A DNA stretch of 64,000 nucleotides from positions 128,960,001 to 129,024,000 of the forward strand of contig OZ296649.1 of NCBI GenBank assembly GCA_965655095.1. The letters are read 5' to 3'. The notes under the pieces were generated by a model that was not told the DNA's origin, ran no database searches, and saw nothing but the letters and a program-made list of their open reading frames with translations. Source of the stretch: Haplodiscus bocki. Lineage: Eukaryota. Position numbers and translations under genes: made by a program. This document shows positions 14,497-64,000 of this stretch, one piece after another (the first letter of the stretch is position 1; every line of letters begins with the position of its first letter).

Positions 14497-15029
14497 GCGT
14501 AGCAATAAGTTGATGCACTAAAAACATTTTTCCATATATGGATTTATTTTGTTGAATTCACGCGTCAACACATGTTCTCAATGTTCGAGTTGCTCCACTC
14601 GTTTCCAGTTGTAGGCAGTTAATTAAAATACACCGATACAAGGTTTCCTAGACGAAGGCTTCTTTTCTATCAAATATTATGGGAATCTGCAGTATATGGA
14701 GGCTTTTCCTTCTCTGTCGTTCACGTGACCTTCTCTACATGGATATATGTCCAAAAGGTCTTCGTGCTCTTAATGAGAAACGTCAAAAAGCAAAATGTAA
14801 CGTCCTATGAGTATTTTGACTCATATTATGACTTTTGCATTAGAATTTTTGTTCAAATGATTTTTTTTTCAAAAAATGAATCAAATTCAAACTCTGAGAT
14901 TTCGCAAGTCTTTTTTGGTAACCTCATTTCCAGTTTGTATTGTTTTATCTTCCAATGAATGATATTCTGCCAAATTTGAAAACAACTTGGATCACTCAGA
15001 GAACACAGTTTAGGAGACACATTTATGGA

Positions 15030-40300: not shown

Positions 40301-42846
40301 CCTGGAAAAAGATTCCTCAAAATTGAGCCATTTTTTTGTCGGAATCTACGGTTAACACCAAACAAATCTCTTTTTGACCATAATGCAGTGTATATGGTGA
40401 CACACCAATAGGCAGTTATTGACCGCAGACCAATCAAAACCGGTGAAAAGTATTGTTATAATCGATTCTGGGTGGAAAATGTTGGCTGGTAATACCCATG
40501 ACTGCATTGTCCCACACGAATTGATCCAATAACAGACAATGCATGAGACGTCCAAACGTTAGGGATGGCAGACCGAGTATGTTTGATAACGGCAGCTTCG
40601 GTGATGGGAGCTGACTTTGTGATTCTGAATGACTGTCGAACGATTGCGTCTCTGCAAAATCATTCCTCTATCAGTTTGATGTGTATGTTATGTTGTATAA
40701 ATGTAGTCAAAAAGACTGATCACATCGGAAACACAGCAGGGCACACTGAGAACAGTTTTCCAGAGTTCGGTGTGGAATTTTGCACTTTTCTCATAAACGT
40801 TCATTAGCCGATGTTTGGGAAATACCATGTTTGTGGACCGTTGCTTGTCACCCGTCAGTGTATCCCTTCTAGTTCCTGTTTCAGTTGCCAATTCGAGCGT
40901 TTATTAACTCAAACGATCATTCTTTTCCCCGAAGAAAAATGTTGTCAAAACGACGACGGTTTTGTCGCGGGTGTACTAAGTTATTGATTGTTTGCTATTG
41001 TTCTCGCTAGCTAATATTGCTGAGCGGCGTGTGCGGCCATATGTCTGCGTTATCGTGTAAGAAAGTCTCAAAAGCTTACACTGTTATTAGCTTTGTAAAT
41101 TTGCCTTGCTAAACCGCGCGAACAAATTTGCGTAAGTTCTACTAGCAAGGACTTGGTGAGCAAAGAAAGAGTATGAAATAAGAGATGAATTATTTGGTGA
41201 ATATACGGAAATGGCAGTCAACTTGTACAAAGTAAATGTGTACAAGATAAGATGAAATTTCCGATGGGTGAGAATATTAGGGGTGAAATTTGAGAAATCC
41301 AAATTAATAACTTTCAGTAGCCACCTTCTAAATTTTATAAAGCAACTTCTACAAATTCACAACCATTATAATATCAATTTTAACTGTAATATATCAATTT
41401 TGTATCACACGACTGTAATATAGAATAAGCAATTTTACCCGCGAAATCCAAAGAATTATTCTTCTATCCACTGTATATTTATTCCCTTGTATAATATTCG
41501 AAGATATCAAGAAATTTCCAACACAAAGATATCAACCAGAAAGTATCCAAAATTTTACAATATCCAAAATATTCGAAGAAAGAATTTATAATAGATTCGA
41601 AGTTTATCGCATGATAAATTCGAAGATAATAAATTCGAAGTTTAAGGCATCGCAGTTTTAATAAAGCATAATAAGTCAGATTTAACAATAAGTTTAGCTG
41701 AAATTTTTATTATTCAAATAAATGGAGTAAAACAGCAATTGACAATATTAAACTTACAAATCTTCCCAAAAATTATTGGAAATGTTTATCTTGAATAAGT
41801 TGAGGTAAGTTTTGGCAGTGCTTTTTATTTTTGGAGCTAGGACGAATGGTAACATTCGTTGTTTCTAGCTTGGCCTTTTTGCCCTTTTTGTTTTGTGTAG
41901 TTTTACGCTTATGTTGTATGTAAGTTTTAGCTAAGACTTCGGTAACATGCCATAAAGCAGTCAACCGAGTCAATTTTCTTAAGTTCCTCCTTTAGTCAAG
42001 TGTTGTCCACTGACGAGGCGCTTTCAAGTATTTCGCTTTTAGTTAGTAAGTTGTCTGTTTTAGCTTTTTGTCTACGACTATGGTAACGGGCATAGAGCAG
42101 TTAACCAAGTCAGGTTTCTTATGGTCCTCTTTTGGTCAAGTGTTAATCCACTGACGAGGCGCTTTCATGTATTTTCACTTTTAGTCTAACGACTCAGTAC
42201 TTGTTTAACATAGTAACTGGCCGAGAAATCTTAATCCCCTTTTCGTCCATACCGTGACATAGTCCTCGGATTTTGTTGGAGGGGTTTGAATTGTTTTAGC
42301 CTTTTAGATTTTATCTAAGACTCAGTGTTACTCGTGTCTACGGTTACTGAGCTGTTTTCTCTTATGTTCCCTTGTCTCAAACGCGGTAGTTTACTCGCGT
42401 AATTGTTGAGTGGGTTTATCTTTTACTTTTGCAATTTTCGAATAACCAGTAGTTTATTAACTGACTGGGTTTGGAGTGCAAAAATCTTCTAAGAATTTCT
42501 AGAGAGATTTACTCTGCTAGTAGATGAAACTAGAAACTCACGAATACCATCGTTGAAGTTGAGAAAGGGTGTTGATGTTCGGGTTCTCCAGGTCTTTGGT
42601 GGCTGTTCGAGTCTGTTAGAAGTTGCTCGCTAAGAAGCGGTAGGAAGTTAGAAGTTGAAGAGGAAGTCGAGAAGAGTTCCGCCTCGCGGATTTAAGCAGG
42701 TGAATTGTGGCAAGCGAATGAATACTATGGAAGTGCGCAGGGTATCTATACCCGGATGATTACGTGCCCTTTCAATTTTGGGCGAGAGCCAATAGGATCA
42801 TTCGACGAGCGAATCGAAAGCAGTTAAGTTGGCTCTGTATAATAGA

Positions 42847-43248
42847 AATTTAGCAAAGACAAGTTTAGGAGTTGTCTTAGAATAATTCTAGTTGAGTGGA
42901 TGGAGAGATTTGGCAAAGACAAGTTTAGGAATTGTCTTAGAATAATTCTAGTTGAGTGGATGAAGAGGTTTGGCAAAGACAAGTTTAGGAATTGTCTTAG
43001 AATAATTCTAGTTGAGTGGATGAAGAGATTTGGCAAAGACAAGTTTAGGAATTGTCTTAGAATAATTCTAGTTGAGTGGATGAAGAGATTTGGCAAAGAC
43101 AAGTTTAGGAATTGTCTTGGAATAATTCTAGTTGAGTGGATGAAGAGATTTGGCAAAGACAAGTTTAGGAATTGTCTTAGAATATTTCTAGTTGAGTGGA
43201 TGAAGAGATTTGGCAAAGACAAGTTTAGGAATTGTCTTAGAATAATTC
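42847..43248. repeat. 60-bp tandem array (~6.7 copies) in 3' LTR
   Basis: Same unit as 61500-61901. Confidence 0.95.
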
Positions 43249-43497
43249 AATGATGAGCATTTTAGTTTGAAATTAGGATGAGGGCGAAGAGAAAGAGAGT
43301 TTCGCCTCGGGGAAATAGGATAGTTAACTGAGGAGAGCGATTGAATAAAATGAGAATGTGCGGGGTATTTATACCCGGGTATGGCGCAATCGAGTGATCG
43401 TCCAATAGGAGAGCGCCTGAAGATAGCAATGTTTGCTTGGGAATCATTTGATCGGCGAGGAGAGGTGAGGAGTGGCGGTTGTTCAGAATTATTGAGG

Positions 43498-43682
43498 TTT
43501 TTGCGGCGAAGTCATGATTCGACTTTGAATATTTTCGCTGAAAGCGATTTTGCGGCTAAGTCAGAGTTTGACTTAGAATATTTTCGCTAATGAGCGTTTT
43601 GCGGCTAAGTCATAATTTGACTTAGAGTATTTTCGCTGAAAGCGAATTTGCGGCCAAGTCAGAATTTGACTTAGAATAATTT
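43498..43682. repeat. ~49-bp palindromic tandem repeat (~4 copies) in LTR (copy at ~62151-62335)
   Basis: Unit tttgcggctaagtcagaatttgacttagaatattttcgctgaaagcga, with internal inverted repeats ctaagtca/tgacttag and tcgct/agcga. Confidence 0.85.
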
Positions 43683-44426
43683 CGAAGATCAAGAAAGGCG
43701 AGAGAAGAGGAAGTTCAAAGTTTTTAAGAGTAGAGGCGAAGAGGAAAGAACAGAGCAAGTTGTTGACGGTAAGCGAGTGAGTGGATAAATGATCTCTTCG
43801 GTCGTGCCAAATGACTCTAAAATGGCATCATGCTGTTTTTTCATGCCACCAATAGGAAAACAGGGCATGATCGGCATGTCATACCTACTAGCCAATAGGC
43901 TGATAGTAGGATTTGGGCAAATTTGAAAATTTAATTTTTCTTCAATTTCGTCATCAATTTGTGCAATTCCACCCGAGTAATCTCATATCTCGCCCCTGTC
44001 GCCATAATAGCGGCAAATATTTAACCATAAACATAATCATCAGCTTTGTCGCCTCATAATCTGGTTTTCTGAGTTTTATCGTCTTGTATTTCCTGGGTCA
44101 CCAGGGTCTTTTATTTATTCGTAAATATCTGTGGCAACACCTCCGAAATTCCTGCTGGGTAAGTCAACTTTATTTCCTTCGTAATCTTAATTAGCTCGTA
44201 TTTCCTGTATAATTAACAAATATACAAACTGCACTGATAAATTTTGGTGTTTATCTGAAATCTGATAAATCTTGGGCTCGCCATTTTGGGCAAAAATCTC
44301 TCGAGGTTAGTTTCAACTTTTCTTTATTATAAAATCATAAAACTGCAATTTTTCATTAGGTTTAAGCGGTAGTCATAACGCGATAACTCACCCTGGTTAA
44401 AAGAGATGAAAAATGATTGGGGGGTT

Positions 44427-45749
44427 CTAGGGAAAGGGAGGAAATGGAAGGTTTTGCGCGGATGATTTCTGCACTTTTGGGTCAGAAAACGAGACTTCAA
44501 TATAACATGTATCATTTACAACATATCCATCAGTTTCGCTGAAAAGTTTAGAATGTGGGATGTATTTGTAGAAAGCAACAGCGAATGCATCATTCTTGAG
44601 AGAAGATGTTGGTCGTTTGAAGGGGGGTTCCTGCGAGGGTTGAATCGTTTGTGTCCAAGCATTAAGCGGGTCAAGCTGGTCACGGAGGCTGGAATGAATA
44701 GCCTTAGGAAATGGCCATCGCAAAAGACCGTCGTATTCTCCAGGAAAAAAGGCAAAGATGATGGTGGCAAATTTTCCTGCTGTCGCGTCAATCCCATAAG
44801 TGTGAAATCGGATAATGAAATTGTACCCATAGGGATGAGTTCGGAAAACAGGGCTCCAGTAACCGGTAGTCTTATCATCGAGAGGTTTAGATTGGCGATG
44901 TGCTTATTTTGCTGAATCGAAGATGAATCGTACCGATGGTATCCGCCATAGGATTGTATTGTTAGAGCCAGCTTCCAGTTGACGAATCTTGTCATACAGG
45001 AAGGAGTAGTTACTTTGTATGCTTGAAAGCATTGACTTCTGGCGTGAGAGATCATATTTTGTTTGCTTTTCCAGTGCGTTGAGTTTGGAAATGATGTCTG
45101 AGGATACTGCTGAATGAGGCATCTGAAGATCGGATGAGAATTGACAAGGAGTGAGAGAAGAAAGCAAATCAGATGATTTAGGAACATCAGAGTCGCCCAT
45201 TAGAATGATTTTGGAAGTGGATGCTAGTGAGAGCTCATGGGTCTCGGGCAGCGAGGGGTTCGTCACCGTACCTTCACTCGGTGGGTCAAGGGAAAATTGT
45301 TTTGGAGGATTTCCAGATTTCTGATTCATAAGTATGTTTTGGGTGAAGATGAGATCCTTCTGGAGTTGGAAGACTAGTAGCTGGAGGGTCTGGCGTTCGA
45401 GTCTTTCGGACTCTAGATCCTGATGAAGTTTTGCAACTGTCAGTTGTACCGAATGGAGATACTGTGCCTGTTTCAGGTGGGCTAATGGGAACTTCTGTAA
45501 TAAGGGGGTCGTTTGCTGGATAGAGGATTCGGAGTAAGCCTGGAGTTGGCTCAGCTGAGTACTTAACGATTGAATCTGTTCTTCAATCGGTTGAGGATGA
45601 GGGTTAGAAGTAAGTACCTTAGCAGCTTTTGTGGGAGAATCAGAAGGTCCGGATGAATCCATCTCCACAAGAGGGTGTTTTCGACTAAGAGAATAAGGTT
45701 TAGGGCGTTGCTGAGGACGAAAAGTTGGCGCAAACGGGTTCAGAGTCAT
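44427..45749 (-). pseudogene. PAM2 motif + coiled-coil + TRAF-C (MATH) domain protein, ~440 codons, one in-frame TAA at 44904-44906
   Basis: Reading through the stop gives ILWRIPS...SAK*AHRQ...YWSPVFRTHPYGYNFIIRF...PGEYDGLLRWPF...RDQ...FKRP...YVVNDTCYIEV, the canonical TRAF-C motifs. N-terminus MTLNPFAPTFRP. Confidence 0.85.
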
Positions 45750-46372
45750 CAAGGCAGGTGAGCTGTGATTGCTTTCGGGGGTACAACAATTCGTTGAGAT
45801 GGGAAAGAGTTGTTCTTAATCGTAAATTCTTGTCGGGTACCATCCCAATATATGATTTCCCATGAAGAGAATTCTGGTTTGAGTTTGTAGGGTAAATGAC
45901 GGTTAAATCGAGGCTTTTTAACAATTCTGGCCCGAGAGGCGAAATATTCGCGTCTATGTTGTTTGTAGAGAGCCACGGATTTGGCGTTATTCTGAGGGTT
46001 AGGGTGTCTAGGTCGTGATGCAACTGAGCGGATGTTTTCTCTCGAGATACCAGTGGGTCGAAGGGTTTCTCCTTCGGATTCGGTGTATACGGCAGAAGAA
46101 GGAGTTGCGTTATTGATGAGTACGTTAGTAGTTGGAGAAACCGGTGGCGAATTAACTATTGATCTCGTTTGAGGATTAGATTGCTCGTTGTGTAGAATAG
46201 GGTCCACAGTGGTTGAAGAAGGAGATGAAACAGGAGAGAGAAATGAGAAAACAGGAGTCGCACACTGATCCAGGCAAGTTGGGGTGAATGGCTCCAATTC
46301 TAGGTCTGGGTCTCCGAGAATAGATAGGATTTCGTTGCTGTCCAATAAAGGGAGAGGTTGAGAAGTGATTGG
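45749..46372 (-). CDS. Ser/Pro/Thr-rich, basic accessory ORF (~207 codons), probably entered by splicing
   Basis: The frame is open from the AG acceptor at 46373, with no ATG start. Basic segment RARIVKKPRFNR. Its TGA overlaps the next ATG (TGATG). Confidence 0.5.
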   Translation of the reverse strand, partial: PITSQPLPLLDSNEILSILGDPDLELEPFTPTCLDQCATPVFSFLSPVSSPSSTTVDPILHNEQSNPQTRSIVNSPPVSPTTNVLINNATPSSAVYTESEGETLRPTGISRENIRSVASRPRHPNPQNNAKSVALYKQHRREYFASRARIVKKPRFNRHLPYKLKPEFSSWEIIYWDGTRQEFTIKNNSFPSQRIVVPPKAITAHLP

Positions 46373-46400: not shown

Positions 46401-48566
46401 TTAAACGGGTGATACAGGAAGGGTAGAAAAACCCAATGCAGCGGAGTTAACCACTGGGTAAAGATGCTCTTCCTTCTTCTTAGCCTCCTCTCGCATCTCA
46501 TAGAGCTCTTTATCTACTCTAGGATCGGCGTTCTTAGATGCGCTAGATGCAAAACGATTTGCTTGTGGGTTATACATTGAAGTCATAACCGATGTCAAGA
46601 AAAAATTGTATGAAGCGCTCAGGAGGGTCTTACCAAACCCTAGTGAAGCACCGGTCATTCTGTTGATTTCCATGTGCCTTATTATCATAACAACCAGATC
46701 GATTATAAGCTTTAGGAATAGAAAGACTGAGAAATAGATTCCACAGTGTTCGAGAATATAAGCAACTGGTCCAAAGGTATCCATAAAACGATCCTTGAAA
46801 TATTCTGGGGATATCATCTTGTCAACATAGAACTCTGTTCTTGGAGTGTAAGAGTGGAATCCGTCAGGACCTTCGTGAGCATTGGAGTAGATAATTAGGT
46901 TCTGCGAAAACTTCTTTAAACCTGTTCTGGAAGCGGCGTTAATCAGGATGTTATCCCAGAATCCACGAAGTTCGCTTCTAGTGTACATGCCTGCATCTTG
47001 TGATCCAGTGAGGGATTGTGCAGTCATCGGTGTAACTTGTTTAGGTCCAAAGACAGCAGGTTTATCTTGATGTACTATTCCAGGCGTGAGTGTATACCAA
47101 GAATCCTCTTGATCCATGTCAAGTTGAAAGAGATTCTTGATTCTATCGGAACAATTCTGTGTAACGGCATCAGGATAAGTTTGTCTCGTAATTGGATCAA
47201 CAAATCGAATTTCACCTTCATACAGGATGGGTATTCTATCATAGCACTGATTCATCGTATGAAGTGGTGATTGAACCATTGGACAGTGGTAAAGCCAAGC
47301 AAGACTGCCATCTGTTTCCAAGAACATTGATCTATTTCCTGTGAGCATGTAGCCTGCTAACCGGGGATTTTCAAGAGCTAACATTAGGTTAGTGAGGATT
47401 TGGGTACGTTCTTGTTCACACTGGTTTTGTAGTAGCTGTATTTCGGTCGCTTGAAGGAGTCTTGAACTTTGGAAGAACAGATAGTCTATCTTCGTTCCAA
47501 GGTGCATCTCATAATCCATATTCAAATAACTGTCAGGTTTATCTTCTTGTTTGAACTGTGCTCCTTCCAGCTGAGGGTTATGCACGTAAAGTTGACCAAA
47601 ATCGTTTTTCTCTCGGGGTCCTAAATACTGAAGTATTTTAGTCGCACCGTTCTTCTCACGGCCAAGATTTCTTCCAGTATCCATATCGAAAGCTTCACTG
47701 AGTCGAGCCATATAGAGCGAGTCGTAGTTTGTTGGATAAATTGGCGTGGGTTTTCCGCAATGCTTTTGTGGGTTGTTCTTTACTTCAAACACAAACTTGG
47801 ACGTAGAGTCTTTTCCACTAAGGACATAGTTTTTTCTGTCTTGCTTAACCATGTTGACATCTTCTGTTCGAAGAATGGATAGTACACAATTGTCCGGGTA
47901 ATCCCAAATATAGGCATATGGGTCGAGTGAAGTTGTTTCGCAGCCAAGTTCTTCTAGAGCACAAGGTAGGATCAGTCCCATGTCGGATAACACTTTTCCG
48001 TTTTCTATCGTGACTTTTAAAGTTGTTTTTTTTTGCATGTGGATAATAAAGGTATCCCGAGAAATCCAACCTCTCGTTTTGCAATGATTTCTGTTTGATC
48101 CCGTTGGATCACCAGAAACTTTAACCACAGGAGTCTTGGTATCCCATTCGGCGCCAATCCAATGGCCTTGTAAGTTGATACTAGCTCCTTTTGCAAGTGT
48201 TCGGCAGTGTTCTGGTGAGATAATCAAATCACTTGTTATTCCGGCAATAGTGTGGTCAATACTGCTGTGGTCGTTATGTCCACAGTGCCACTTCTCGCGT
48301 TGATGTTGAATGCGGCATTTGGTTGCGTTTAACTCTTTTCGAAAATGTTTGGTGTAAAGTGTAATTGTGGCTTTGCTGACTTCTAATTCTTCAGGCGTGA
48401 TGTGACACGGCCGTACTTGATTTATGGCATAGAGTGAATTTTCTGTCATCGAGCTGCAGTCAAAGTGAGACACTTTAAGAGCTGGGGCAACCTGATCTGC
48501 GTCTGGAACTAAATGAAACGTCACCTCGGTATAAACCACGAGGATTTGAAAGAAGAATAGCTTCAT
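46401..48566 (-). CDS. env: Envelope glycoprotein (~721 aa), chuvirus-G/herpes-gB-like class III fusogen
   Basis: N-terminal signal peptide, HFDC...PC...KCRI...WHCG Cys pattern, N-glycosylation sequons, helical core (LLQNQCEQER) and a C-terminal TM segment (IYFSVFLFLKLIIDLVVMII). Located after pol. Confidence 0.85.
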   Translation of the reverse strand: MKLFFFQILVVYTEVTFHLVPDADQVAPALKVSHFDCSSMTENSLYAINQVRPCHITPEELEVSKATITLYTKHFRKELNATKCRIQHQREKWHCGHNDHSSIDHTIAGITSDLIISPEHCRTLAKGASINLQGHWIGAEWDTKTPVVKVSGDPTGSNRNHCKTRGWISRDTFIIHMQKKTTLKVTIENGKVLSDMGLILPCALEELGCETTSLDPYAYIWDYPDNCVLSILRTEDVNMVKQDRKNYVLSGKDSTSKFVFEVKNNPQKHCGKPTPIYPTNYDSLYMARLSEAFDMDTGRNLGREKNGATKILQYLGPREKNDFGQLYVHNPQLEGAQFKQEDKPDSYLNMDYEMHLGTKIDYLFFQSSRLLQATEIQLLQNQCEQERTQILTNLMLALENPRLAGYMLTGNRSMFLETDGSLAWLYHCPMVQSPLHTMNQCYDRIPILYEGEIRFVDPITRQTYPDAVTQNCSDRIKNLFQLDMDQEDSWYTLTPGIVHQDKPAVFGPKQVTPMTAQSLTGSQDAGMYTRSELRGFWDNILINAASRTGLKKFSQNLIIYSNAHEGPDGFHSYTPRTEFYVDKMISPEYFKDRFMDTFGPVAYILEHCGIYFSVFLFLKLIIDLVVMIIRHMEINRMTGASLGFGKTLLSASYNFFLTSVMTSMYNPQANRFASSASKNADPRVDKELYEMREEAKKKEEHLYPVVNSAALGFSTLPVSPV

Positions 48567-48760
48567 CACTGTTTAGCCAGTGGAGGTTTCTCTCTATTTT
48601 TTTCAGAGGAATAGCTATTAATTTACAACTACTAAAAAGGAAAAAGGAAGCCGTATTATATTTTACCGGCTACTTCGTAGGCACTAACACGAAGCGGTAG
48701 CACTATATTTAAAGAGTCGCTACACTACTCTATTAAAACGACGTCGAAATTTTTATAAAG

Positions 48761-49059: not shown

Positions 49060-49443
49060 TTAGTTGTCGTATAGATCAACGAGAGCGCGTAGGAGATTGA
49101 TCTGTGACACCTCGTGCAATGCCCCAAGGTTAGTGTCCATAAAATTCAGAAGATCGTCCAAGCTTTGATTTTCTCCTTTGTCCACTTTTTTGGAGATCTT
49201 CAGAGTCACAAAGAGGTTGGCGAACTCGTCTGTTTGGATAGTTATGGGGATTAATATTACAGCGAGTAGATTCTCAATCGCCTGAATTCTGACGTGAAGA
49301 GTGCTTTCGTCAGGAATCCAAAAGATGTTAGTTATTAAATGCTCTCCTTGTAGTGAAATAGGTGTCCACTTACAGCTAAGATTGACCCTTAAGAATTCTT
49401 GATTGTCAGCGGAGCGTCGCAATGAGGTTTCAACCAAATTCAT
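49060..49443 (-). CDS. Accessory ORF C, 127 aa (paralog of leader ORF u6)
   Basis: ATG directly after the ORF B stop. Motif similarity to 58415-58765. Confidence 0.7.
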   Translation of the reverse strand: MNLVETSLRRSADNQEFLRVNLSCKWTPISLQGEHLITNIFWIPDESTLHVRIQAIENLLAVILIPITIQTDEFANLFVTLKISKKVDKGENQSLDDLLNFMDTNLGALHEVSQINLLRALVDLYDN

Positions 49444-51516: not shown

Positions 51517-54500
51517 TTAGAGTTTATAACCGTGGCGTGTTTCAGTGCGTAGCAATGATTCAGCGTCAGGATGATCTGGCTGAGATCGATTGTATTTGGG
51601 TTCTTTGTTTTGATACTTCCGGGTATTATGGCGAATCAATCGCTCAATAGAATTGAGTGGCTGACTAGGCGGTATAGGAGAAGTTATTAACTGTGATGTA
51701 GAAGGGTTATTTATGGGTGTCCGAGGTGAATGACTGAGTGGCTGAGGCGGTATTGTAGGAGAAAGAGTTGGAGGTGAGTTAACACCAGAATCATCACTCG
51801 TATTACTGATTCTTTTTGGTGGGAGAACAGTTGGTGTTGAAGATAAAGGCACTATAGGGAAAGGAATTGAATCGCCTTTAGTGGTTTCTTTTGGGTTTTT
51901 CAACTGTTGTACCCGTCGTTCCATGAATCGTTCGTAGAAGTTATCTCTATGTGCATCTGAAGGGACATACTCCTCAATCATTGGAGGCAAAGATTCTTCT
52001 TTAGGATAGTACTCGACTAAATGGTTTCGATGGACTGTTTTGAGCATTGTAGGGTCTTTGTCGTCTTGGATCTGGTAAGTGGTGTTTGTAATCCGTTTTG
52101 TCACTGTGAAAGTTCCTAATCTGCGTTGTTGAAGTTTCTGACTTTTGGATAAATCCTGTCGATGATTTTCATACAAGACCTTCTGGCCCATGTCAAGGTG
52201 ATGTCCTAGTTTGGATCTGTTGCGATAGGCATGTGATTGTGCTGTCTGCTCACGGCGTCTCTCAAAGGTGGCAGAATAGATCCGTTTACAGTCTCGTTCT
52301 CGTTCCAAAAAGGTTTGAGAAAGCTGTGGTTTCAGAAGGTTATCTAGTAGTTGATTCTTCAAATTGTTTTCGCTATGCGAGTGTGAAGGTAGGTCCTTGC
52401 AAAACTCCGAACAACAGAGTTTATGTTTATTCCTGCAGAGACCAAGTTTTATTGACATTGGTATCTGTGGCTTTGTTCCAAAGACTATTTCGTAGGGGGT
52501 CTTTCCAGTGGTGTAGTTCACACTGGTGTTATGAGCAAAGGCAAATTTGGGTGCTAAGGAAGACCAATTAGTCCCAACATCATTCAAAAAATTTCGCCAA
52601 TACCGAGCGATGTGTTGGTTTTGCGTTTCTACTTTGCCATTTGTCCATGCTGTTCGTGGGCGTAAAGTGATTCCAAGTTCTTTTGCCCAGTTGATAAAAT
52701 CAGAGTTGATGAAGGCGGTGCCTCGATCGTGTATGATAGATTGAGGGATCCCAATGGAATGTATCCATTTTTCAACGGCGGCAATTGTGGCTTGAGCGCT
52801 GGTGTTGGTAACTGGATACACCATTAAGAAACGAGAGAAAGCATCAATCACTAGTAGGCAATGAAGATTGCGGTTGCTTGGCGGATGGAGTGGTCCCTTA
52901 TGATCGATGTGCACCGTACGGAAAGGTATGGCATCATTCTGCCATTCCTCTAAAGGAACTTCGTTCCTGTGTTTTGGTTTGGGTTTATTATTCTGACAAA
53001 TGATACAATCTGCCGTTAGAGCACAAATCCAATCGAACATCCCAGGCCAATAATAGAATCTTTTAGCATTGGCGTAGGTCTTAGAAGCTCCCATATGTCC
53101 ACCCATTTCATTGTAATGTCCTAGGCGAAAACAAGCGAGAAATAGTGATAGGGGAAGGCAAATTCTAAGATTCTCTTCGTCCAATTTGTCCGATGGTTCG
53201 TTATAACAAAGTAATTGTCCTTCAGTCTCAATGAGAAGCCTATCGAGTTCTTGACAATATCGTAAAAAGCCCTTCGATTGCTGAATTTTAGGTGATTTAG
53301 CATCAGGAGAGATTTGTTTGCGGACCCAAGAGCGTACAATTCCAAGGACAGGATCCTTGATTTGTTCGGCTAGAATAGTAGAGACGTCAAGATCTACACT
53401 TTTAGCAACTTCGTCAAGTTTTGCTATCAGAGCTTTTGTGTCCAAGTGAGGAGCTTCGGTAATAGTGAGTGGCTTTTTCGCTAATGAAGCGTCGATTTTA
53501 CCTAACACAGAATCGTGAGCTGTTTTTGCTTTACACAACCGATAGTGATCGACATTAGTGTCTACTCTGAAAATGTGGTCGTCTTCGTCCTCTTCCTTGT
53601 TATCTTCTATTTGATCAGTTGGTAAGGTAACTACGTTCGAAGCTCTGCATTCTTCTTCTTCAGTGTTTGAGGAGCTGATAGAGCTGTAAATTGAGTCAGA
53701 GTTTTCACGTAAAATTGGTGAATAGGATAGGGGGTAGCACAAGCGGCGGGATAGGTTAATAGTCTTGCCCATACGAAAACAGTCTGCAGCAGATTGGGCT
53801 AACAGAGTCGGGAATTCGTTGCTGATACTATTCAGTGTATAGTTCTCTCCGTCATTTTGCAATCTAAGGATCTTCTCATCATTTCCTTGTTGCCGATGTA
53901 TTGGGTAGAAGTCAATACAAGTGTCGTGTGGATTGTCCTCGTGTTGAATTTTGTAAATTACTGGGTTACCATGTTCGTCAAAAAACTCAATATCCTGGGG
54001 TATCTTTTTATGTTGTAATTGATGTTTTTGGTATCCTTCTAGGGTTACATTCCTGCTGAGAATATCAGGGAAAGCAAGGTTTGATCCGGGGGTCCAAATA
54101 ATTTTCAAATTCTGAAATTTTGTGATGATAACTTGATAGCGGAAAAATCGATGGGAAAGTTGTCCTTTGCGCCCCCATAAGTGCAGAATTGGTTTGTGGT
54201 CACAATAAAGATAGATCGGGAACGGAGAGCCAATAATGTAGTGTTCATAGGTTTGTAATGCAGAGACAATTCCACAAAGCTCTCTGTGAAGTGTGGACAT
54301 CTTTTGTTCAGCTTTATCGAAGACTCGAGAGTTAAAAGATATAACACGCTTTCCTTCCGGGAACTGCTGGATTAAAATACAGCCAGTACCAACATTAGAG
54401 CAGTCAACATGAATATGGAAAGGGTAATCCGCGGAAGGAACAGCAAGTATAGTGTCTTCACTGATTCTGTCTTTGATTGACTGAAAAAGTTTTTCGTGTT

Positions 54501-57056
54501 CATCTGTCCAGTGGAAGGATGTTGAGTCTTTAATCAAATCATAGAAGGGTTGACTGTCTACATGGAGATTTTTTATATAGCAACTGTAAAACCCGAGGCA
54601 ACCCAATACTTTCATCACATCAAGTTTGCATTCGGGAGATTTTAAGTTCTTTAAGTCTTTTACTCGTTTTGCAATCGGTTGTATTCCTTCTGGAGAAATG
54701 ACATGTCCAAGGAATTTCACTTTCTTTAAGAAGAAAAATGTCTTATCGGGAGCAGCCTTGAGACCAGCCTTGCGGAGGAGAGTATGGTATTCATTTATAA
54801 TAGTGAACATCTCGTTTTTATTTTGTGATTGCATGATCGTATCATCGATGTACGTTATGGCTTGTTTGTTCTTGATGAGAGGATCAAAATGAATTGTCAT
54901 CAGTCGGCTAAAGAAATTCGGGAGTCCGCATAGACCATAGAACCCTCGTGTGTATGTATATTGTCGTCCACCAAGGATAAAACTTGTAAGATTCTGGGTT
55001 TCGGGGCTCAAAGGCACTTGATGGTAGGCGCAAGACAGATCGCTCACAGAGAAGACTTTACCATTTACTCTCGTCATAATCATTTGTACGGGTTCCAGTG
55101 GCCAAGAATAGTTGGTGAGATCAGTTACTGAGTTGAGGTTCCGGGCATCGATGACGAGTTTAACGTAATCAGTTTTAGGCATCAAGATGATGGGGTTAAC
55201 AAAAAGTGATCCCATTTCGTCGTCGTCACCCATTTCTCGGATGATGTCTGCATCTTTAATTTGTGTTAAGAGTTTTTCCAGCTTTTCTTTCAAGTGTAAA
55301 GGTACTTTGCTGGGTCTTTGTCTCTTTAATTCTGCCTTGGGCTTCAGCGTTACATGGAACTTTTGACGTGTCTTGCCCACATCAAACTTGTGTCGAGAAT
55401 ATACGTCTTGTGAATCAAGTAGCATATCAATGAGGAGAGTCATTTCTTCATCAGTGACGTCAGAATACTGGAAATCGAATTCCTTGATATAATCCACAAG
55501 TTCTTTTGGTTGATATTGCAAGTAATGTTCAATAAGTCTGTTAGTGAGGTCTTTTCGCGTAATATAGGAAACTGTTCGTCACATGGAGGCTGACAAGATT
55601 TCGAATCTTTAGTGAAATCCGTCTCTAAATCTTTTTCATCGAGATAAAATTCTTCACTATATCGTTCTATTTCATCCTCTGCATAGAACTCAGGATCGCC
55701 TTCCGATGACATTGCATGAACACCGTGACTTTCCAGGGTGTATACCACAACATGGATGTCGGAATAAGCAAAAACATCACGCAATAGTTTCACCACCTCC
55801 TGCCAGTTCATTTGATCCAATCCGCAACCTATTTTCGGGATAGCGATTGTGGACACTCCGTGCATTGCTGCGTGAGACTTCATTGCCTCGAGAGTTGTAA
55901 AGAGAGTAGACATTTCCGGTTTGTCAAAAAACCGTTGTTTCGTCACGAGATTGTAAATATAGCGTCTGCTAGTAGAATCCCAAAAAGGGAACACTTGTCC
56001 GATCAAGAGTTTTGCTTTTTTACAGGTTGAACGAAGGCCAGGAATTTTATGGGAAAGGAAATCAGCGAATCCTTTACTCATTTTAGCATCAGCTGAGATG
56101 CAATGCCCGATTGAATTGGGTTGTTGAATAATCGAATTGTCATTTCCATACACAATCTGTAGGAACTCGTCGCCAGACTGTGCAGGGATTGTAGAATGCA
56201 AAAGGAAACAGTCGTTATAGCGTTCGTCTGTTGCAATGATGGCATTGGTTAAATCATAGGGACTCCGGATCTGATTTTTAGGTTCTTCTCGGTCCATTAC
56301 ATCGAGTGAAGAGAATCCAATTCTTCCTCTAGGAAGCGTGATTTGGTGGTTTTTGTTGTTTTCCATTAAGATAGGAAGATTTTTTTCAGATCGGGTACAT
56401 AACGTATTAACAAAGGATAAGCCAGTTGATACCGCCTGACGATTAGGTTGGAAAGTAGAGCCTGGTGGAAAATGGATTTGAGAGTCTTCGGGTGAATATT
56501 TGCAACAGCGGGCACTTTTGGCATCAATATACATTGTATAAGGTAGTCGAATGGTCAAGATCTGGGATAAGTGGGGATAGACTTTATTTTGATGAAAGCA
56601 ACCATAACAAAGTGAATTTGGAGGATTTTTTAGCTCTATTCCGGGCAGATCAAAATGGATTCCAGATACTTGTTTTTGGCAAAAGTCCATTCCAAGGAGG
56701 TTTTGCGTTTTCATTTCGGTTACCCAAACTGTTAAAGGAAACACGAACTGTCCATCTGGGTCGTAGCAGAAGGTTATACTTGCATAGCCAACCATAGGAA
56801 CTGTCTGTCCCGAATAAGTTTTAGTAAGTTTTGTACTTTTTTGTAATGTGATTGGGTGTTGCAGTTGGCAGATTTCCCAAAAAGTTCGATAAATGAATAT
56901 TGAGCAAGAGGCTCCTGTGTCTAACATAAACTCGATTTCCAAGCCACTATCTTTTTGCGTGTCTCCGGTGGCAAAGTAAAAGATATTGAAACTGAGTCTT
57001 AAGTTCCTAGATTTGTCTGAATTGGAATTCGGAGACCTTAGCAGTTTAACGGACAA
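51517..57056 (-). CDS. pol: Pol polyprotein: aspartic protease - macrodomain - RT - RNase H - integrase; one frameshift near 55553
   Basis: LDTGAS (protease), YIDD (RT), HVDCS/ELCG/CDHK (RNase H), HX6H..CX2C and IDHKGP..HDRG..KVE (integrase). ORFs 55440-57056 and 51517-55521 overlap in different frames around an A-run (GAAAAG). Confidence 0.93.
55735..56165 (-). other. TARG1/OARD1 (Poa1p-like) macrodomain within Pol
   Basis: SIGHCISADAKMSKGFA...RYIYNLVTKQRFFDKP...LEAMKSH...IAIPKIGCGLDQMNW...VVVYTL closely follows the OARD1 motif series. Confidence 0.9.
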
Positions 57057-58414
57057 AGTTCTGATAGTTCATTAATGCAATCATCAGTGGTGGTGAAACG
57101 AACCACGTTCGTTGATGTTTGATTGTTACTTTGCGGAAATTTCTGTTCGTAAGAAGAGGAACTAGTGATTGGGTTAGCATCTGATCTTCTAAATGGCGAA
57201 TTTCTAGGCTGAAAAGGCTGAGGTCGACGGAAAAAATTACCTTGAGAAAAGTCCCGTCTTTGTCCAGAGGGTGAACGAGAAAAATTTTCATTATTTCGCC
57301 AAGTTCCACTTTGACTATTGAAATTCCCATTATTCGATCGATTTCCATTGTTCCTATTAGGGAATTGGTCTGATCGCCGGTCCAATAATCTTCCACGGTT
57401 CTGGTTCTCCTGCCCATAATAGGAATTAGGTCGGTAAGAAGAGTTTTGATTGTTATTCCATTGTCCGGATCCATGGCTTGGTCCTCTTTTCTTATTATAA
57501 TCTTGGGTAAATGTAACTCTTTTTTCTGCAGTTCTTTCATTTTCGGTCTTTTTCAACTCTTCGTCTCGTATTTTCTTCCTGCACCAGCTGGGAGTGTGTC
57601 CATTCGTGCGGCAGTAATTACAAAATCGAGTAGCGTTTTGTCGTCCCTTTTGGTTTGGGTCCACGGGTTTGGAAGTGCCTTCCACAGCATTAACTCGATG
57701 TTCTTGCAGTTCAGTCCTTAGGTTTTTCATCTCTTGGCCCAATGAGGCCAGTTCGGCTTTAGTTTGTTCTTCATCATTTAAAAAATTCGAAGATACTTGA
57801 AAGGACACATCTTTTTGAATTATATGGGTTGAAAATTCATTCCAGGTGGCATTTTGGTGCTCCATTAGGTATTCTTGCGCTTTACGTTGAAGATATCCAG
57901 GTCTAAGTCCTCTCAGACTATAGTCCATGTATTGCTGTCTTCGTTGCCGGGCTTGGGCATCCCGTTCTGCATTTTGTTGAGCGCGGGCGATTCCGTTCAT
58001 ATCATCAGGCCAACCTTTGTCTACTGTCTTTTTGATTCTGTGAAGGAAATTACGAATTTCTTCTCCGTCTCTTCGAACACAGTGCTCTACTTCCAGTCGG
58101 TGGCGAAATTTGTTTCGTCCATCAGAGAATCGACTAATAAAGTTAGTTCGAATATCTTCCCATGGCGTAGCAGCTTCGATGGTGCTTCCATACCATTCGG
58201 CAGCGGGGCCTCTGAGTAGAGAGGAAAAAAGAGCTTTTTTGCGGAAATTGTAGTTGGCAAGGGCATCAGGGTTGGCAGGGGCATCTCCGAGAGCAAAGTT
58301 AATCTTTCGCTCTATGAGTTGTATGAAGGATTCAGCGTCTTGATCGGGGTCAGTTCCGGAAAATTTGTCTAGGGCTAGATCAGGGTAGGCTAGATGAGTT
58401 GCAGCGATAATCTT
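57038..58414 (-). CDS. gag: Gag (capsid + CCHC zinc knuckle); no ATG at the expected start
   Basis: The frame is open 138 codons upstream of the tracked ATG (KIIAATHLAYPDLALDKFSGTDPDQDAESFI...LRGPAAEWY...WEDIRTNFISRF), a typical retrotransposon gag N-terminus. Zinc knuckle CNYCRTNGHTPSWC. Confidence 0.9.
   Translation of the reverse strand, partial: KIIAATHLAYPDLALDKFSGTDPDQDAESFIQLIERKINFALGDAPANPDALANYNFRKKALFSSLLRGPAAEWYGSTIEAATPWEDIRTNFISRFSDGRNKFRHRLEVEHCVRRDGEEIRNFLHRIKKTVDKGWPDDMNGIARAQQNAERDAQARQRRQQYMDYSLRGLRPGYLQRKAQEYLMEHQNATWNEFSTHIIQKDVSFQVSSNFLNDEEQTKAELASLGQEMKNLRTELQEHRVNAVEGTSKPVDPNQKGRQNATRFCNYCRTNGHTPSWCRKKIRDEELKKTENERTAEKRVTFTQDYNKKRGPSHGSGQWNNNQNSSYRPNSYYGQENQNRGRLLDRRSDQFPNRNNGNRSNNGNFNSQSGTWRNNENFSRSPSGQRRDFSQGNFFRRPQPFQPRNSPFRRSDANPITSSSSYEQKFPQSNNQTSTNVVRFTTTDDCINELSELCPLNC
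57044..57050 (-). promoter_or_regulatory. Putative -1 ribosomal frameshift site G_UUA_AAC (gag-pol)
   Basis: CCG TTA AAC TGC TAA at the gag end; the -1 frame is the protease ORF. Downstream gtct...gaatt/aattc...agac can form a stem. Confidence 0.7.
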
Positions 58415-58765
58415 TTACTCAAACTTGAGATACAGATATTCTATCAATTCTTCCAAAATTCCAAGTTGAAAAGAATTTAAGTGGGGCTCAGGAAAATCTT
58501 CGTATTGATTAAGTGCGTCAGATAACGATTTAAGCAAGGGGTGATGGTCGTCTAGGTCTATCTGTTTCGAGAGATCTGAATTTCCTTCTGGATGTACTGT
58601 GACACGAATCCAGAAATCGTAATTGAATGTCCACTTCAAACAAGTGATTATCACCGTCAGGGTTTCGTCTTTGGATGATATGATCCAGGGGCAATTTAGT
58701 GGAACTTGTTTGCACTCGATTTCTGGTATTTTGTCCAATGGGGAATTGTCCAGTTTTTGTGGCAT
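58415..58765 (-). CDS. Leader ORF u6, 116-aa accessory protein of unknown function (paralog of ORF C)
   Basis: ORF track entry. Shares VxLxCxW...ITx[LI]xW...[IV]R[VI] and a C-terminal amphipathic helix with 49060-49443. In frame with gag across one TAA. Confidence 0.7.
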   Translation of the reverse strand: MPQKLDNSPLDKIPEIECKQVPLNCPWIISSKDETLTVIITCLKWTFNYDFWIRVTVHPEGNSDLSKQIDLDDHHPLLKSLSDALNQYEDFPEPHLNSFQLGILEELIEYLYLKFE

Positions 58766-59536: not shown

Positions 59537-59596
59537 ATAAATATAGCTCCAACTAATATGCACCGTATAATCAAAAAAATTGCTCACACTTTGTGC

Positions 59597-59612
59597 CTCA
59601 CTGGTCGCACCA
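59597..59612 (-). promoter_or_regulatory. tRNA primer-binding site (TGGTGCGACCAGTGAG), possibly tRNA-Leu
   Basis: Starts with TGG 3 nt after the 5' LTR end, complementary to a tRNA 3' end ...CUCACUGGUCGCA-CCA. The isoacceptor identity is a guess. Confidence 0.75.
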
Positions 59613-61499
59613 GTTTGTCGCGGGTGTACTAAGTTATTGATTGTTTGCTATTGTTCTCGCTAGCTAATATTGCTGAGCGGCGTGTGCGGCCATATGTCTG
59701 CGTTATCGTGTAAGAAAGTCTCAAAAGCTTACACTGTTATTAGCTTTGTAAATTTGCCTTGCTAAACCGCGCGAACAAATTTGCGTAAGTTCTACTAGCA
59801 AGGACTTGGTGAGCAAAGAAAGAGTATGAAATAAGAGATGAATTATTTGGTGAATATACGGAAATGGCAGTCAACTTGTACAAAGTAAATATGTACAAGA
59901 TAAGATGAAATTTCCGATGGGTGAGAATATTAGGGGTGAAATTTGAGAAATCCAAATTAATAACTTTCAGTAGCCACCTTCTAAATTTTATAAAGCAACT
60001 TCTACAAATTCACAACCATTATAATATCAATTTTAACTGTAATATATCAATTTTGTATCACACGACTGTAATATAGAATAAGCAATTTTACCCGCGAAAT
60101 CCAAAGAATTATTCTTCTATCCACTGTATATTTATTCCCTTGTATAATATTCGAAGATATCAAGAAATTTCCAACACAAAGATATCAACCAGAAAGTATC
60201 CAAAATTTTACAATATCCAAAATATTCGAAGAAAGAATTTATAATAGATTCGAAGTTTATCGCATGATAAATTCGAAGATAATAAATTCGAAGTTTAAGG
60301 CATCGCAGTTTTAATAAAGCATAATAAGTCAGATTTAACAATAAGTTTAGCTGAAATTTTTATTATTCAAATAAATGGAGTAAAACAGCAATTGACAATA
60401 TTAAACTTACAAATCTTCCCAAAAATTATTGGAAATGTTTATCTTGAATAAGTTGAGGTAAGTTTTGGCAGTGCTTTTTATTTTTGGAGCTAGGACGAAT
60501 GGTAACATTCGTTGTTTCTAGCTTGGCCTTTTTGCCCTTTTTGTTTTGTGTAGTTTTACGCTTATGTTGTATGTAAGTTTTAGCTAAGACTTCGGTAACA
60601 TGCCATAAAGCAGTCAACCGAGTCAATTTTCTTAAGTTCCTCCTTTAGTCAAGTGTTGTCCACTGACGAGGCGCTTTCAAGTATTTCGCTTTTAGTTAGT
60701 AAGTTGTCTGTTTTAGCTTTTTGTCTACGACTATGGTAACGGGCATAGAGCAGTTAACCAAGTCAGGTTTCTTATGGTCCTCTTTTGGTCAAGTGTTAAT
60801 CCACTGACGAGGCGCTTTCATGTATTTTCACTTTTAGTCTAACGACTCAGTACTTGTTTAACATAGTAACTGGCCGAGAAATCTTAATCCCCTTTTCGTC
60901 CATACCGTGACATAGTCCTCGGATTTTGTTGGAGGGGTTTGAATTGTTTTAGCCTTTTAGATTTTATCTAAGACTCAGTGTTACTCGTGTCTACGGTTAC
61001 TGAGCTGTTTTCTCTTATGTTCCCTTGTCTCAAACGCGGTAGTTTACTCGCGTAATTGTTGAGTGGGTTTATCTTTTACTTTTGCAATTTTCGAATAACC
61101 AGTAGTTTATTAACTGACTGGGTTTGGAGTGCAAAAATCTTCTAAGAATTTCTAGAGAGATTTACTCTGCTAGTAGATGAAACTAGAAACTCACGAATAC
61201 CATCGTTGAAGTTGAGAAAGGGTGTTGATGTTCGGGTTCTCCAGGTCTTTGGTGGCTGTTCGAGTCTGTTAGAAGTTGCTCGCTAAGAAGCGGTAGGAAG
61301 TTAGAAGTTGAAGAGGAAGTCGAGAAGAGTTCCGCCTCGCGGATTTAAGCAGGTGAATTGTGGCAAGCGAATGAATACTATGGAAGTGCGCAGGGTATCT
61401 ATACCCGGATGATTACGTGCCCTTTCAATTTTGGGCGAGAGCCAATAGGATCATTCGACGAGCGAATCGAAAGCAGGTAAGTTGGCTCTGTATAATAGA

Positions 61500-61901
61500 A
61501 ATTTAGCAGAGACAAGTTTGGGAATTGTCTTGGAATAATTCTAGTTGAGTGGATGAAGAGGTTTGGCAAAGACAAGTTTAGGAATTGTCTTAGAATAATT
61601 CTATTTGAGTGGATGAAGAGGTTTGGCAAAGACAAGTTTAGGAATTGTCTTAGAATAATTCTAGTTGAGTGGATGAAGAGATTTGGCAAAGACAAGTTTA
61701 GGAATTGTCTTAGAATAATTCTAGTTGAGTGGATGAAGAGATTTGGCAAAGACAAGTTTAGGAATTGTCTTAGAATAATTCTAGTTGAGTGGATGAAGAG
61801 ATTTGGCAAAGACAAATTTAGGAATTGTCTTAGAATAATTCTAGTTGAGTGGATGAAGAGATTTGGCAAAGACAAGTTTAGGAATTGTCTTAGAATAATT
61901 C
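61500..61901. repeat. 60-bp tandem array (~6.7 copies) in 5' LTR
   Basis: Unit tttggcaaagacaagtttaggaattgtcttagaataattctagttgagtggatgaagaga repeats in phase with the 60-nt lines. Confidence 0.95.
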
Positions 61902-62018
61902 AATGATGAGCATTTTAGTTTGAAATTAGGATGAGGGCGAAGAGAAAGAGAGTTTTGCCTCGGGGAAATAGGATAGTTAACTGAGGAGAGCGATTGAATA
62001 AAATGAGAATGTGCGGGG

Positions 62019-62059
62019 TATTTATACCCGGGTATGGCGCAATCGAGTGATCGTCCAAT
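62019..62059 (-). promoter_or_regulatory. Candidate LTR promoter: TATAAATA box with inverted CCAAT box ~30 nt upstream (copy at 43366-43406)
   Basis: GGGTATAAATAC on the minus strand plus CCAATAGGA. A second similar module (TATAGATA + CCAATAGGA) lies at 61396-61446 / 42743-42793. Confidence 0.5.
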
Positions 62060-64000
62060 AGGAGAGCGCCTGAAGATAGCAATGTTTGCTTGGGAATCAT
62101 TTGATCGGCGAGGAGAGGTGAGGAGTGGCGGTTGTTCAGAATTATTGAGGTTTTTGCGGCTAAGTCATGATTCGACTTAGAATATTTTCGCTGAAAGCGA
62201 TTTTGCGGCTAAGTCAGAATTTGACTTAGAATATTTTCGCTAATGAGCGTTTTGCGGCTAAGTCATAATTTGACTTAGAGTATTTTCGCTGAAAGCGAAT
62301 TTGCGGCCAAGTCAGAATTTGACTTAGAATAATTTCGAAGATCAAGAAAGGCGAGAGAAGAGGAAGTTCAAAGTTTTTAAGAGTAGAGGCGAAGAGGAAA
62401 GAACAGAGCAAGTTGTTGACGGTAAGCGAGTGAGTGGATAAATGATCTCTTCGGTCGTGCCAAATGACTCTAAAATGGCATCATGCTGTTTTTTCATGCC
62501 ACCAATAGGAAAACAGGGCATGATCGGCATGTCATACCTACTAGCCAATAGGCTGATAGTAGGATTTGGGCAAATTTGAAAATTTAATTTTTCTTCAATT
62601 TCGTCATCAATTTGTGCAATTCCACCCGAGTAATCTCATATCTCGCCCCTGTCGCCATAATAGCGGCAAATATTTAACCATAAACATAATCATCAGCTTT
62701 GTCGCCTCATAATCTGGTTTTCTGAGTTTTATCGTCTTGTATTTCCTGGGTCACCAGGGTCTTTTATTTATTCGTAAATATCTGTGGCAACACCTCCGAA
62801 ATTCCTGCTGGGTAAGTCAACTTTATTTCCTTCGTAATCTTAATTAGCTCGTATTTCCTGTATAATTAACAAATATACAAACTGCACTGATAAATTTTGG
62901 TGTTTATCTGAAATCTGATAAATCTTGGGCTCGCCATTTTGGGCAAAAATCTCTCGAGGTTAGTTTCAACTTTTCTTTATTATAAAATCATAAAACTGCA
63001 ATTTTTCATTAGGTTTAAGCGGTAGTCATAACGCGATAGTTTTAACTTTTGCAGAAAGTGAGTACTTTGCAGAAGCCGTCATCATCGCAGAGGTTGAGCT
63101 GTTGAAAATCCTCCAACAAATTCAGACTTAAAAAACAAGAGAAAAAGATTGGGAATGTTCATATGTTTGTTGTAAACCTGGTTGACTAAGTTTCAGTTGA
63201 AAGCACATCCTGGAATATGGTTTGGTCAGTGTCTGAATGACCCCTCGGAATCTTATGCTGATTTTGAGCTACGAAGGAATCTGGACTTTCATGGCTGGAG
63301 CCAACGCAGGCCCTGATCCGAAATTTGTAGCAAGTTGTTGGGGATGGAAATAGTGAAAAGGAGAAATGACTCACTTTGTGAGTATTCAGACATCATCTTG
63401 CCTGCTGCAGAATGCAGTCATAGGCAGGTGCACTCCATTGATACATAGCAAACGAATGGTCCGAAATGCTTATCAGCAGAGAGAGGGTAGCGACTGTTGA
63501 TGCAGCCCGGAAAAGCGATGCAGCATGTGAAGTTCTTCCATTGTAGCAAGATTGTTCGTCCTGAATATGTAGTGTGATTGATGGTAAAAATGAAAAGAGG
63601 TCAAATGAGTTCATCTTGCTGTTTCCAGCAATTGATTGGCATGAAGGCCACGGTTGCCTAGCGTTTCTGACGAGCGATGGCAGCCTGCCCGTGTGGCCTA
63701 GACCAAATACTTTTCATTAAAGAACTCGCTCAGCACGTTGTTAGAACCCCTAAAAATAATGAGAACGACCAAGGACAAAATTTGCCAGCGAGCTAGGTCT
63801 ATTTGAGCTGAATCGGATGCCATTTATTTAGTTCAACACTACAACCACACTGCAATGAGTGCTGAAAAGTTTTTGTGTGACTGGGACGAGTTACCAGCAG
63901 TACGGTTGATTGTTACACGTACAACATATTGTTTGCAACCGAGAACGTCAAAAAAGACTCGGTGGCACTACTTGAAGAATGCAGTTGCTCATATTTTTCT

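Follow-up and report, generated by a model that had tools for sequence, protein, structure and literature searches.

The reading frame at positions 44427–45749 (minus strand) of the 64,000-nt stretch analysed here (hereafter: the window) encodes a TRAF-like protein, which an env-carrying Gypsy LTR retrotransposon has acquired from a host genome and which related elements maintain as an accessory gene. Our analysis reveals that this capture is real, under selection and present in multiple lineages of elements; TRAF cargo in Gypsy elements as such was already known from the planarian Burro elements. The original prediction, made from the DNA letters of the window, postulated a host-derived TRAF-like gene located inside an LTR element and acting as a decoy in innate immunity. 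As detailed below, the identity, host origin and maintenance of the gene have been corroborated, while the proposed mode of action has to be revised.

The element carrying the TRAF gene

The gene resides in a Gypsy LTR retrotransposon of ~22 kb (Table 1), which must have been inserted recently, since its LTRs differ at only 16 of 3425 aligned bases (99.5% identity). The element is bounded by a 4-bp target-site duplication (AAAC), possesses a tRNA primer site, and displays the order typical of env-carrying Ty3/Gypsy elements: gag, then protease, RT, RNase H and integrase, then env. Its complete gene order (5' to 3') is orf116, gag, protease with a Macro domain, RT-RNaseH-integrase, orf127, env, orf207, TRAF, LTR. 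The placement of the TRAF gene between env and the 3' LTR was thus described correctly, with the addition that a conserved frame, orf207, intervenes between env and TRAF.

Table 1. Features of the TRAF-carrying element (positions in the window)
Feature	Positions	Strand	Remarks
5' LTR	59616..63038	-	~3.4 kb; contains tandem repeats of 60 bp and 49 bp
tRNA primer-binding site	59596..59612	-	14-mer found 2474 times in the genome, control 31
orf116	58415..58765	-	small conserved ORF in leader position; tandem (2-3 copies) in family B
gag	57038..58414	-	PF03732 E 7e-5, under cut-off
aspartic protease, then Macro (ADP-ribose) domain	55440..57068	-	PF13650 E 1e-3; PF01661 E 2e-4
pol: RT, RNase H, integrase	51517..55578	-	Gypsy order
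orf127	49060..49443	-	small conserved accessory ORF; no known family
env	46401..48572	-	open 723-aa frame; PF24664 Monjiviricetes-type fusion glycoprotein, E 2e-36
orf207	45749..46372	-	conserved accessory ORF between env and TRAF gene
captured TRAF-like gene	44427..45749	-	440 codons; between orf207 and 3' LTR
coiled coil 1	45321..45587	-	motif KFPL-x-x-x-K-x-x-QYLH-x-VQ, common to host RING-less TRAF subfamily
coiled coil 2 (TRAF-N stalk)	44976..45104	-	helix 216-258 in model; profile aligns with TRAF1/3/5 stalks
MATH / TRAF-C domain	44484..44957	-	no intron across host intron position
3' LTR	40963..44385	-	starts 41 bp past TRAF stop; target-site duplication AAAC after

The copy in the window is defective: its TRAF gene contains a stop, and its protease/Macro and RT are in different frames, unlike a copy from family B (for families A–E see below), in which protease/Macro and pol form a single frame of 1859 aa. 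The Macro match in the window (PF01661, 21.5 bits) is slightly below the 22-bit cut-off; full-length matches to this domain (at 51–83%) are kept in the protease–RT interval of families A, B, C and E. By analogy with RNA viruses, the Macro domain is a candidate for a second counter-defence module. A direct BLAST comparison of orf116 with orf127 gave no significant match, and the best Atlas score of orf116 (0.76) is too weak to use; queries with either of them match one and the same ORF before env in family E (~30%), which hints that the two may form one paralogous family. The tandem repeats of the LTRs (42724–43684 and 61377–62337) vary in number from copy to copy.

Two other regions of the window are repetitive. 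Positions 15015–22731 hold a large inverted repeat with no long ORF listed, made up of two direct copies of ~1.9 kb and an inverted arrangement, 95–98% alike. Positions 27110–30716 (plus strand) contain a stop-broken non-LTR retrotransposon with an RT (PF00078, E 5e-22) and an endonuclease-like ORF; by eye, its ORF1 begins with a chromo/Tudor-like stretch.

The TRAF-like gene, its host relatives and orf207

The 440-codon frame contains a single in-frame TAA (44904–44906, translated as X). Reading through it was proposed to expose a TRAF-C domain, and this is what we found: the Pfam search that had been recommended matched PF21355 (TRAF/meprin MATH, E 1.5e-17) and PF22486 (E 1.2e-14), and comparison with PDB sequences gave 27 TRAF matches at E ≤0.001 (best 5e-13). 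The stop is present in only one of the 64 family-A copies fetched, namely the window copy itself. For P0002, a natural open copy, AlphaFold predicts long helices (residues 55–143 and 216–258) followed by a MATH sandwich (265–422), with a disordered N-terminus and linker; Foldseek searches with this model retrieved TRAF4, TRAF1, TRAF5, TRAF3 and TRAF2 at E ~1e-12, with TRAF4 and TRAF1 as the best matches. The protein therefore has the TRAF fold, with the TRAF-N coiled coil directly before the TRAF-C sandwich and with no RING at the N-terminus; the Pfam scan identified no RING or zinc-finger family in the gene. The architecture had been given as a coiled coil plus MATH without RING, of which only the number of coiled coils needs correction, from one to two. 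The motif of coiled coil 1 is kept in families A and B, eroded in C and absent in E.

TRAFs trimerise via the TRAF domain; their contacts with receptor tails are made by hot spots on strands beta3, beta4, beta6 and beta7, which in TRAF1/2/3/5 include a beta3 Arg/Tyr, a serine triad and beta7 residues (PMC6125299, accessible part). The serine triad is absent from the host subfamily described below and from all element TRAFs. The beta3 Arg is kept in the host subfamily and in families A and E, and is replaced by Gln in B and Lys in C. The beta7 strand of the host subfamily has an invariant N-x-S-V-G, at which A, B and C each carry a distinct, family-fixed sequence; these three families have also lost the conserved beta6–beta7 segment of the host, and family E retains most of the host beta7 segment and groove. 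The TRAF1/2/3/5-type pattern of hot spots is thus not reproduced in the element proteins, a comparison that depends on the placing of TRAF2 residue numbers on the TRAF1 alignment. In summary, the MATH core and the coiled coils are conserved while the receptor-binding edge differs by lineage.

A family search revealed two single-locus host genes on contig C5 (C5a and C5b) with the same two-coiled-coil architecture and motif; the 30 kb retrieved around each of them is free of element genes. Both are interrupted within MATH by a GT-AG intron (~345 and 180 nt, respectively). All element copies lack this intron and are colinear with the spliced product, which indicates that the capture likely went through RNA. 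P0002 and C5a are 28% identical in an alignment of 346 aa that takes in coiled coil 1 (E 4e-42). The only named relative in the subfamily is a gene from Convolutriloba macropyga (XP_075250303-5), 48% identical to C5b. From such comparisons the host is likely an acoel, a conclusion based on one gene family.

Phylogenetic trees were built on TRAF-N and MATH, from 47 rows and, under a mixture model, from 37 rows, with ten near-duplicate, degenerate or long-branch rows left out. Element TRAFs and the host RING-less subfamily form one clade (support 100/98 with 47 rows and 99/98 with 37), separate from RING-type TRAFs and from two other host MATH exons; this grouping, together with the intron loss, supports the proposed capture from a host. 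No branch in the donor clade singles out one host paralogue. Families A–D form one clade (100/100) and E another in the free tree; a single clade was not rejected by the AU test (p 0.55), and given the common position of the gene, a single capture is the simpler reading. A RING-bearing TRAF4-like host gene on C8 was not among the tree rows. No RING was found in the host relatives P0289, P0288 and P0273, nor in a scan of the 482-aa and 368-aa isoforms of the host subfamily; the short first exon of C5b contains a single zinc-finger remnant, with no RING found upstream of it. Since the nearest host subfamily is itself RING-less, the lack of RING is, judging from these sequences, inherited from the donor subfamily and not engineered, which does not support the idea of a dominant negative made by truncation.

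A locus in a host gene region on C8 (L128, 44% identity in MATH) was considered as a donor and rejected as a decayed element-borne copy inside an intron region. Likewise, P0252, P0239 and P0249, considered as canonical TRAFs, are element-like in the tree and were relabelled or dropped. P0277, P0198, P0193 and P0252 are intron-less-looking members of the same TRAF clade from other assemblies. For P0277, the genome analysed here (G000) contains no close match, and other species may therefore harbour related element-borne TRAFs; no match was obtained when a metagenome was scanned with P0277.

The neighbouring orf207 starts directly after a splice-acceptor-like poly-T-AG in families A, B and C, and with its own ATG in E; in the window copy it has no in-frame ATG. 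The orf207 stop runs into or directly adjoins the start codon of TRAF, the junction reading TGATG or ATGA in A, ATGA in B, TAATG or TGATG in C and TAA-AC-ATG in E; in the window copy it is TGATG. Stop-restart coupling on spliced sub-genomic RNA is established for several viruses, and we infer from the sequence of the orf207–TRAF junction that it fits this pattern. Four sequencing runs cover the element throughout; no splice-type joints are present among the matches listed, which is uninformative either way. A splice donor in the env signal peptide was also considered and discarded: it is possible in A and C and not evident in B and E. The orf207 protein comprises an acidic N-terminal patch, a basic helix and a conserved small beta-barrel of ~50 aa. 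It has no match in Pfam, PDB sequences or Atlas, and Foldseek gave weak SH3/Tudor-like matches (best E 0.08); as a guess from the model, it might regulate transcription or RNA of the element.

Copies, lineages and selection

The original prediction would have been refuted had the gene been confined to one copy or evolved neutrally. A TRAF search of the 1.5-Gb genome returned 3938 candidates, of which the best 150 were scored: they show 75–100% identity in MATH, and 77 are in open frames of at least 423 aa. The TRAF gene ends 40–41 bp before the LTR in 30/30 loci, and the order env-orf207-TRAF is found in all 40 ten-kb family-A loci (selected for long frames), with a window-type LTR start in 33 of them. 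The TRAF of family B, 38% identical to that of A, is present in at least 96 copies, 82/96 without a stop, and the gene order is as in A in every locus examined (2 long regions and 12 loci). Altogether there are at least five TRAF-bearing lineages (A–E; 28–39% identity), with TRAF at the same place behind orf207. In family E pol is only 59% identical, TRAF is shorter (245–250 aa), and the LTRs are of its own type (1433 bp, 99.9% alike).

To these we added an unbiased sample, the first 40 of the 2474 primer-site matches on C1 (31 for the control pattern), not selected for TRAF. The env C-terminus is present in 25 of these 40 regions, and 23 of the 25 carry an element-borne TRAF directly after orf207 (C 9, B 7, D 3, E 2, A 1, one outside the A–E assignment); a 24th TRAF match is a neighbouring host gene and was excluded, and one region contains an env fragment only. 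Scaling 23/40, we arrive at ~1,400 TRAF-bearing elements genome-wide, a rough figure from one chromosome stretch, versus a handful of host TRAF genes. A one-off insertion is ruled out by this multi-copy, multi-lineage presence. Tandem arrays of the env-end/orf207/TRAF block, with periods of 2.8 kb and 3.55 kb, occur at L174 (G000:C10:65788000-65806000) and G000:C277:50305-57424 and amplify the TRAF cassette locally. Elsewhere, two tandem family-B elements have a common middle LTR (L077-L081, G000:C3:37404001-37454000).

The TRAF gene is under purifying selection, with dN/dS of 0.09–0.15 in its folded parts in four lineages. These are pairwise NG86 estimates on natural copies selected for their open frames, and the pairs are non-independent. 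For family A (53 copies, counting pairs with dS >0.2) we obtained 0.13 for MATH, 0.14 for each of the coiled coils, 0.26 for the linker and 0.46 for the N-terminus. In family B (18 copies) the values are 0.15 for the whole gene and 0.11 for coiled coil 1, and those for TRAF in families C (8 copies) and E (6 copies) are 0.09 and 0.13, respectively. Between subfamilies the coiled coils show 0.11–0.16. For comparison, the 40 family-A loci gave 0.08 for env, 0.06 for integrase, 0.13 for MATH, 0.20 for the N-terminal half of TRAF, 0.18 for orf207 and 0.24–0.26 for orf127. Very close pairs of copies have higher values (0.41–0.45), as neutral changes are expected after insertion. TRAF has been retained across a divergence that saturates synonymous sites. 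The orf207–TRAF block recombines against env among subfamilies and tends to travel together, as in the recombinant L041 (pS 0.09 in env, 0.37 in orf207 and 0.44–0.49 in TRAF).

Possible function and relation to known systems

We put at about even the chance that the element protein is a putative TRAF mimic, which would join host TRAFs and alter the TNFR/JNK/cell-death output. An ancestral env-carrying Gypsy element would have taken up a RING-less host TRAF as an intron-less copy, likely derived from RNA and presumably acquired by template switching during reverse transcription, and the descendants of this element would have kept it under purifying selection as an accessory gene. Expression of the gene would rely on a sub-genomic RNA spliced to the acceptor ahead of orf207, with translation by stop-restart coupling or leaky scanning. 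Its product would trimerise and mix with host TRAFs via the two coiled coils, joining or displacing host TRAF trimers, and TNF-receptor/JNK/cell-death signalling would be dampened or re-routed where the element replicates. Simple competition for host receptors fits poorly with an edge that differs from that of the host and between lineages; since this edge is remodelled per lineage and the coiled coils and core are conserved, we prefer mixing into host trimers with altered ligand choice. The RING-less TRAF1 regulates signalling through TRAF2 binding (PMC4858697, accessible part). Against a mimic, families C and E are as abundant and constrained as the others despite an eroded (C) or missing (E) coiled coil 1, so an intact coiled coil 1 is not essential, and the remodelled groove could equally fit a new, element-specific ligand. 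The genome contains a TNFR-like gene (L184/L193, G000:C1:50853914-50858800, minus strand) with a signal-peptide-like segment and two cysteine-rich exons, which we take to resemble EDAR/TROY-type receptors. TNFR–TRAF–JNK signalling without NF-kB is known from Drosophila. No TNF ligand family was matched in the genome by an insensitive exon-wise search, in which the controls were also silent. Given the TNFR-like exons, a decoy role on TNFR/cell-death signalling is conceivable.

Considerably less probable than a TRAF mimic is a protein re-purposed as a trimeric adaptor for the element life cycle, no longer acting on host signalling, with orf207, Gag or the Env tail as its partner in trafficking, assembly or RNA handling. 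It would account for the coupling-like overlap with orf207 kept in all lineages, for a groove unlike that of the host and fixed per lineage, and for the joint travel of the orf207–TRAF block as it recombines against env in L041. However, the free recombination of TRAF and env between subfamilies is unexpected for a dedicated Env partner, and the host coiled-coil-1 motif, kept in A and B at dN/dS 0.11–0.14, suggests contact with a host partner.

Slightly less likely still, the protein could, instead of being a dominant negative, serve as a positive, TRAF1-like scaffold that turns on signalling for survival or proliferation in stem or germ cells. The loss of the host beta6–beta7 segment in A, B and C makes faithful host-like signalling improbable, even though the donor naturally lacks RING, has one zinc-finger remnant and resembles TRAF1 in architecture, TRAF1 acts positively or negatively (PMC4858697, accessible part), and planarian Burro joins TRAF with anti-apoptotic BIR and BCL2-like domains.

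The decoy in its original form, i.e. a RING-deleted dominant negative that occupies receptor tails and blocks Toll/TNFR-to-NF-kB immunity, appears unlikely. The likely host is an acoel, a group for which the absence of TLRs, MyD88, IRAKs and NF-kB has been reported (PMC12849515, in its accessible text, in whose main part neither TNF nor JNK nor the gene name TRAF is found). The Rel domain was unmatched in our genome search, in which controls were silent and NFAT was missed as well; moreover, RING loss is older than the capture and the groove is remodelled. These points outweigh the confirmed TRAF fold and lack of RING, the two TIR-domain matches and the TNFR-like gene in the genome, the beta3 Arg kept in A and E, and the larger part of the host groove retained in E. 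As acoels are reported without NF-kB, the NF-kB reporter assay proposed earlier would be the wrong native read-out.

Finally, that TRAF is a neutral passenger fragment of a successful retrotransposon is hardly credible and is rejected by the selection data: the window copy is broken and TRAF frames decay after insertion about as often as env (at least 8 versus at least 7 of 23 open), but such decay is expected of any element gene, and dN/dS of 0.09–0.15 in four lineages, retention over synonymous-saturating divergence and long or stop-free frames in 77/150 and 82/96 top matches all speak against it.

Capture of ORFs downstream of env is known for LTR elements, and the planarian Burro/GYPSM1 Gypsy elements carry MATH_TRAF_C together with BIR, BCL2-like and RING domains, by which their authors suspect interference with apoptosis and ubiquitination (accessible part of PMC6431247, citing Jurka 2007 and Grohme 2018). 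Burro is likewise an env-bearing Gypsy element, and in Dugesia tigrina the domain is on an accessory ORF; otherwise, it lies inside a 4,873-aa polyprotein or upstream, beside BIR, BCL2-like, RING and ankyrin domains, and env is located between gag and pol (same source). Compared with these descriptions, we find a free-standing TRAF-N plus TRAF-C gene after env, with a host donor subfamily traced and purifying selection measured over at least five lineages. The ORFs here are separate, and Pfam scans of them detected no Burro-type BIR, BCL2-like, ankyrin or RING domains. That planarian Gypsy elements have convergently captured MATH_TRAF_C, along with BIR and BCL2-like domains, suggests by analogy that cell-death control is targeted recurrently.

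Vertebrate TRAF1-6 have the TRAF-N coiled coil and TRAF-C sandwich in common with the element protein, and TRAF1 also lacks RING (PMC6125299, accessible part). Nevertheless, the element TRAF is not orthologous to any of them: it belongs to an acoel-type subfamily, lacks the serine triad and has an extra N-terminal coiled coil beyond a disordered linker. Metazoan errantiviruses resemble our elements in the LTR-gag-pol-env-LTR layout, Gypsy order, primer site and many recent copies, whereas at least four extra ORFs (orf116, orf127, orf207, TRAF) and a Macro domain in pol distinguish the latter; in the accessible material of the errantivirus report (PMC13524379), the main text contains no TRAF, acoel or macro, and seven supplementary files contain none of six acoel names. 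Our literature search, which did not extend to subscription journals, Repbase and bioRxiv supplements, found no publication on TRAF-carrying LTR elements in acoels or errantiviruses. Complex retroviruses have accessory genes between env and the 3' LTR, such as lentiviral nef and foamy virus tas/bet. The position, the several accessory ORFs and the probable spliced sub-genomic expression are similar here; the difference is that our element is a Gypsy (metaviral) one and that its accessory gene is a recognisable host signalling adaptor.

Large DNA viruses and complex retroviruses characteristically carry host-derived modulators of immunity or cell death; the elements described here provide a selected, multi-lineage example that invertebrate LTR retrotransposons can also run accessory-gene strategies. 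They converge on TRAF with planarian Burro, in another regenerative worm with adult stem cells. In a genome annotation of this animal, the transposon cargo would pass for an expansion of TRAF by hundreds to thousands of genes. As acoels are reported to lack Toll/NF-kB, the pathway mimicked would give a direct handle on the roles of TRAFs in these animals. It is a tentative proposal, to which we give somewhat less than an even chance, that an acoel Gypsy radiation carries TRAF coupled to a transactivator-like protein, plus Macro, and thereby manipulates a TNFR/cell-death defence that works without NF-kB. If this is true, the lineage-specific grooves would mark an arms race and point to an acoel pathway directed against mobile elements.
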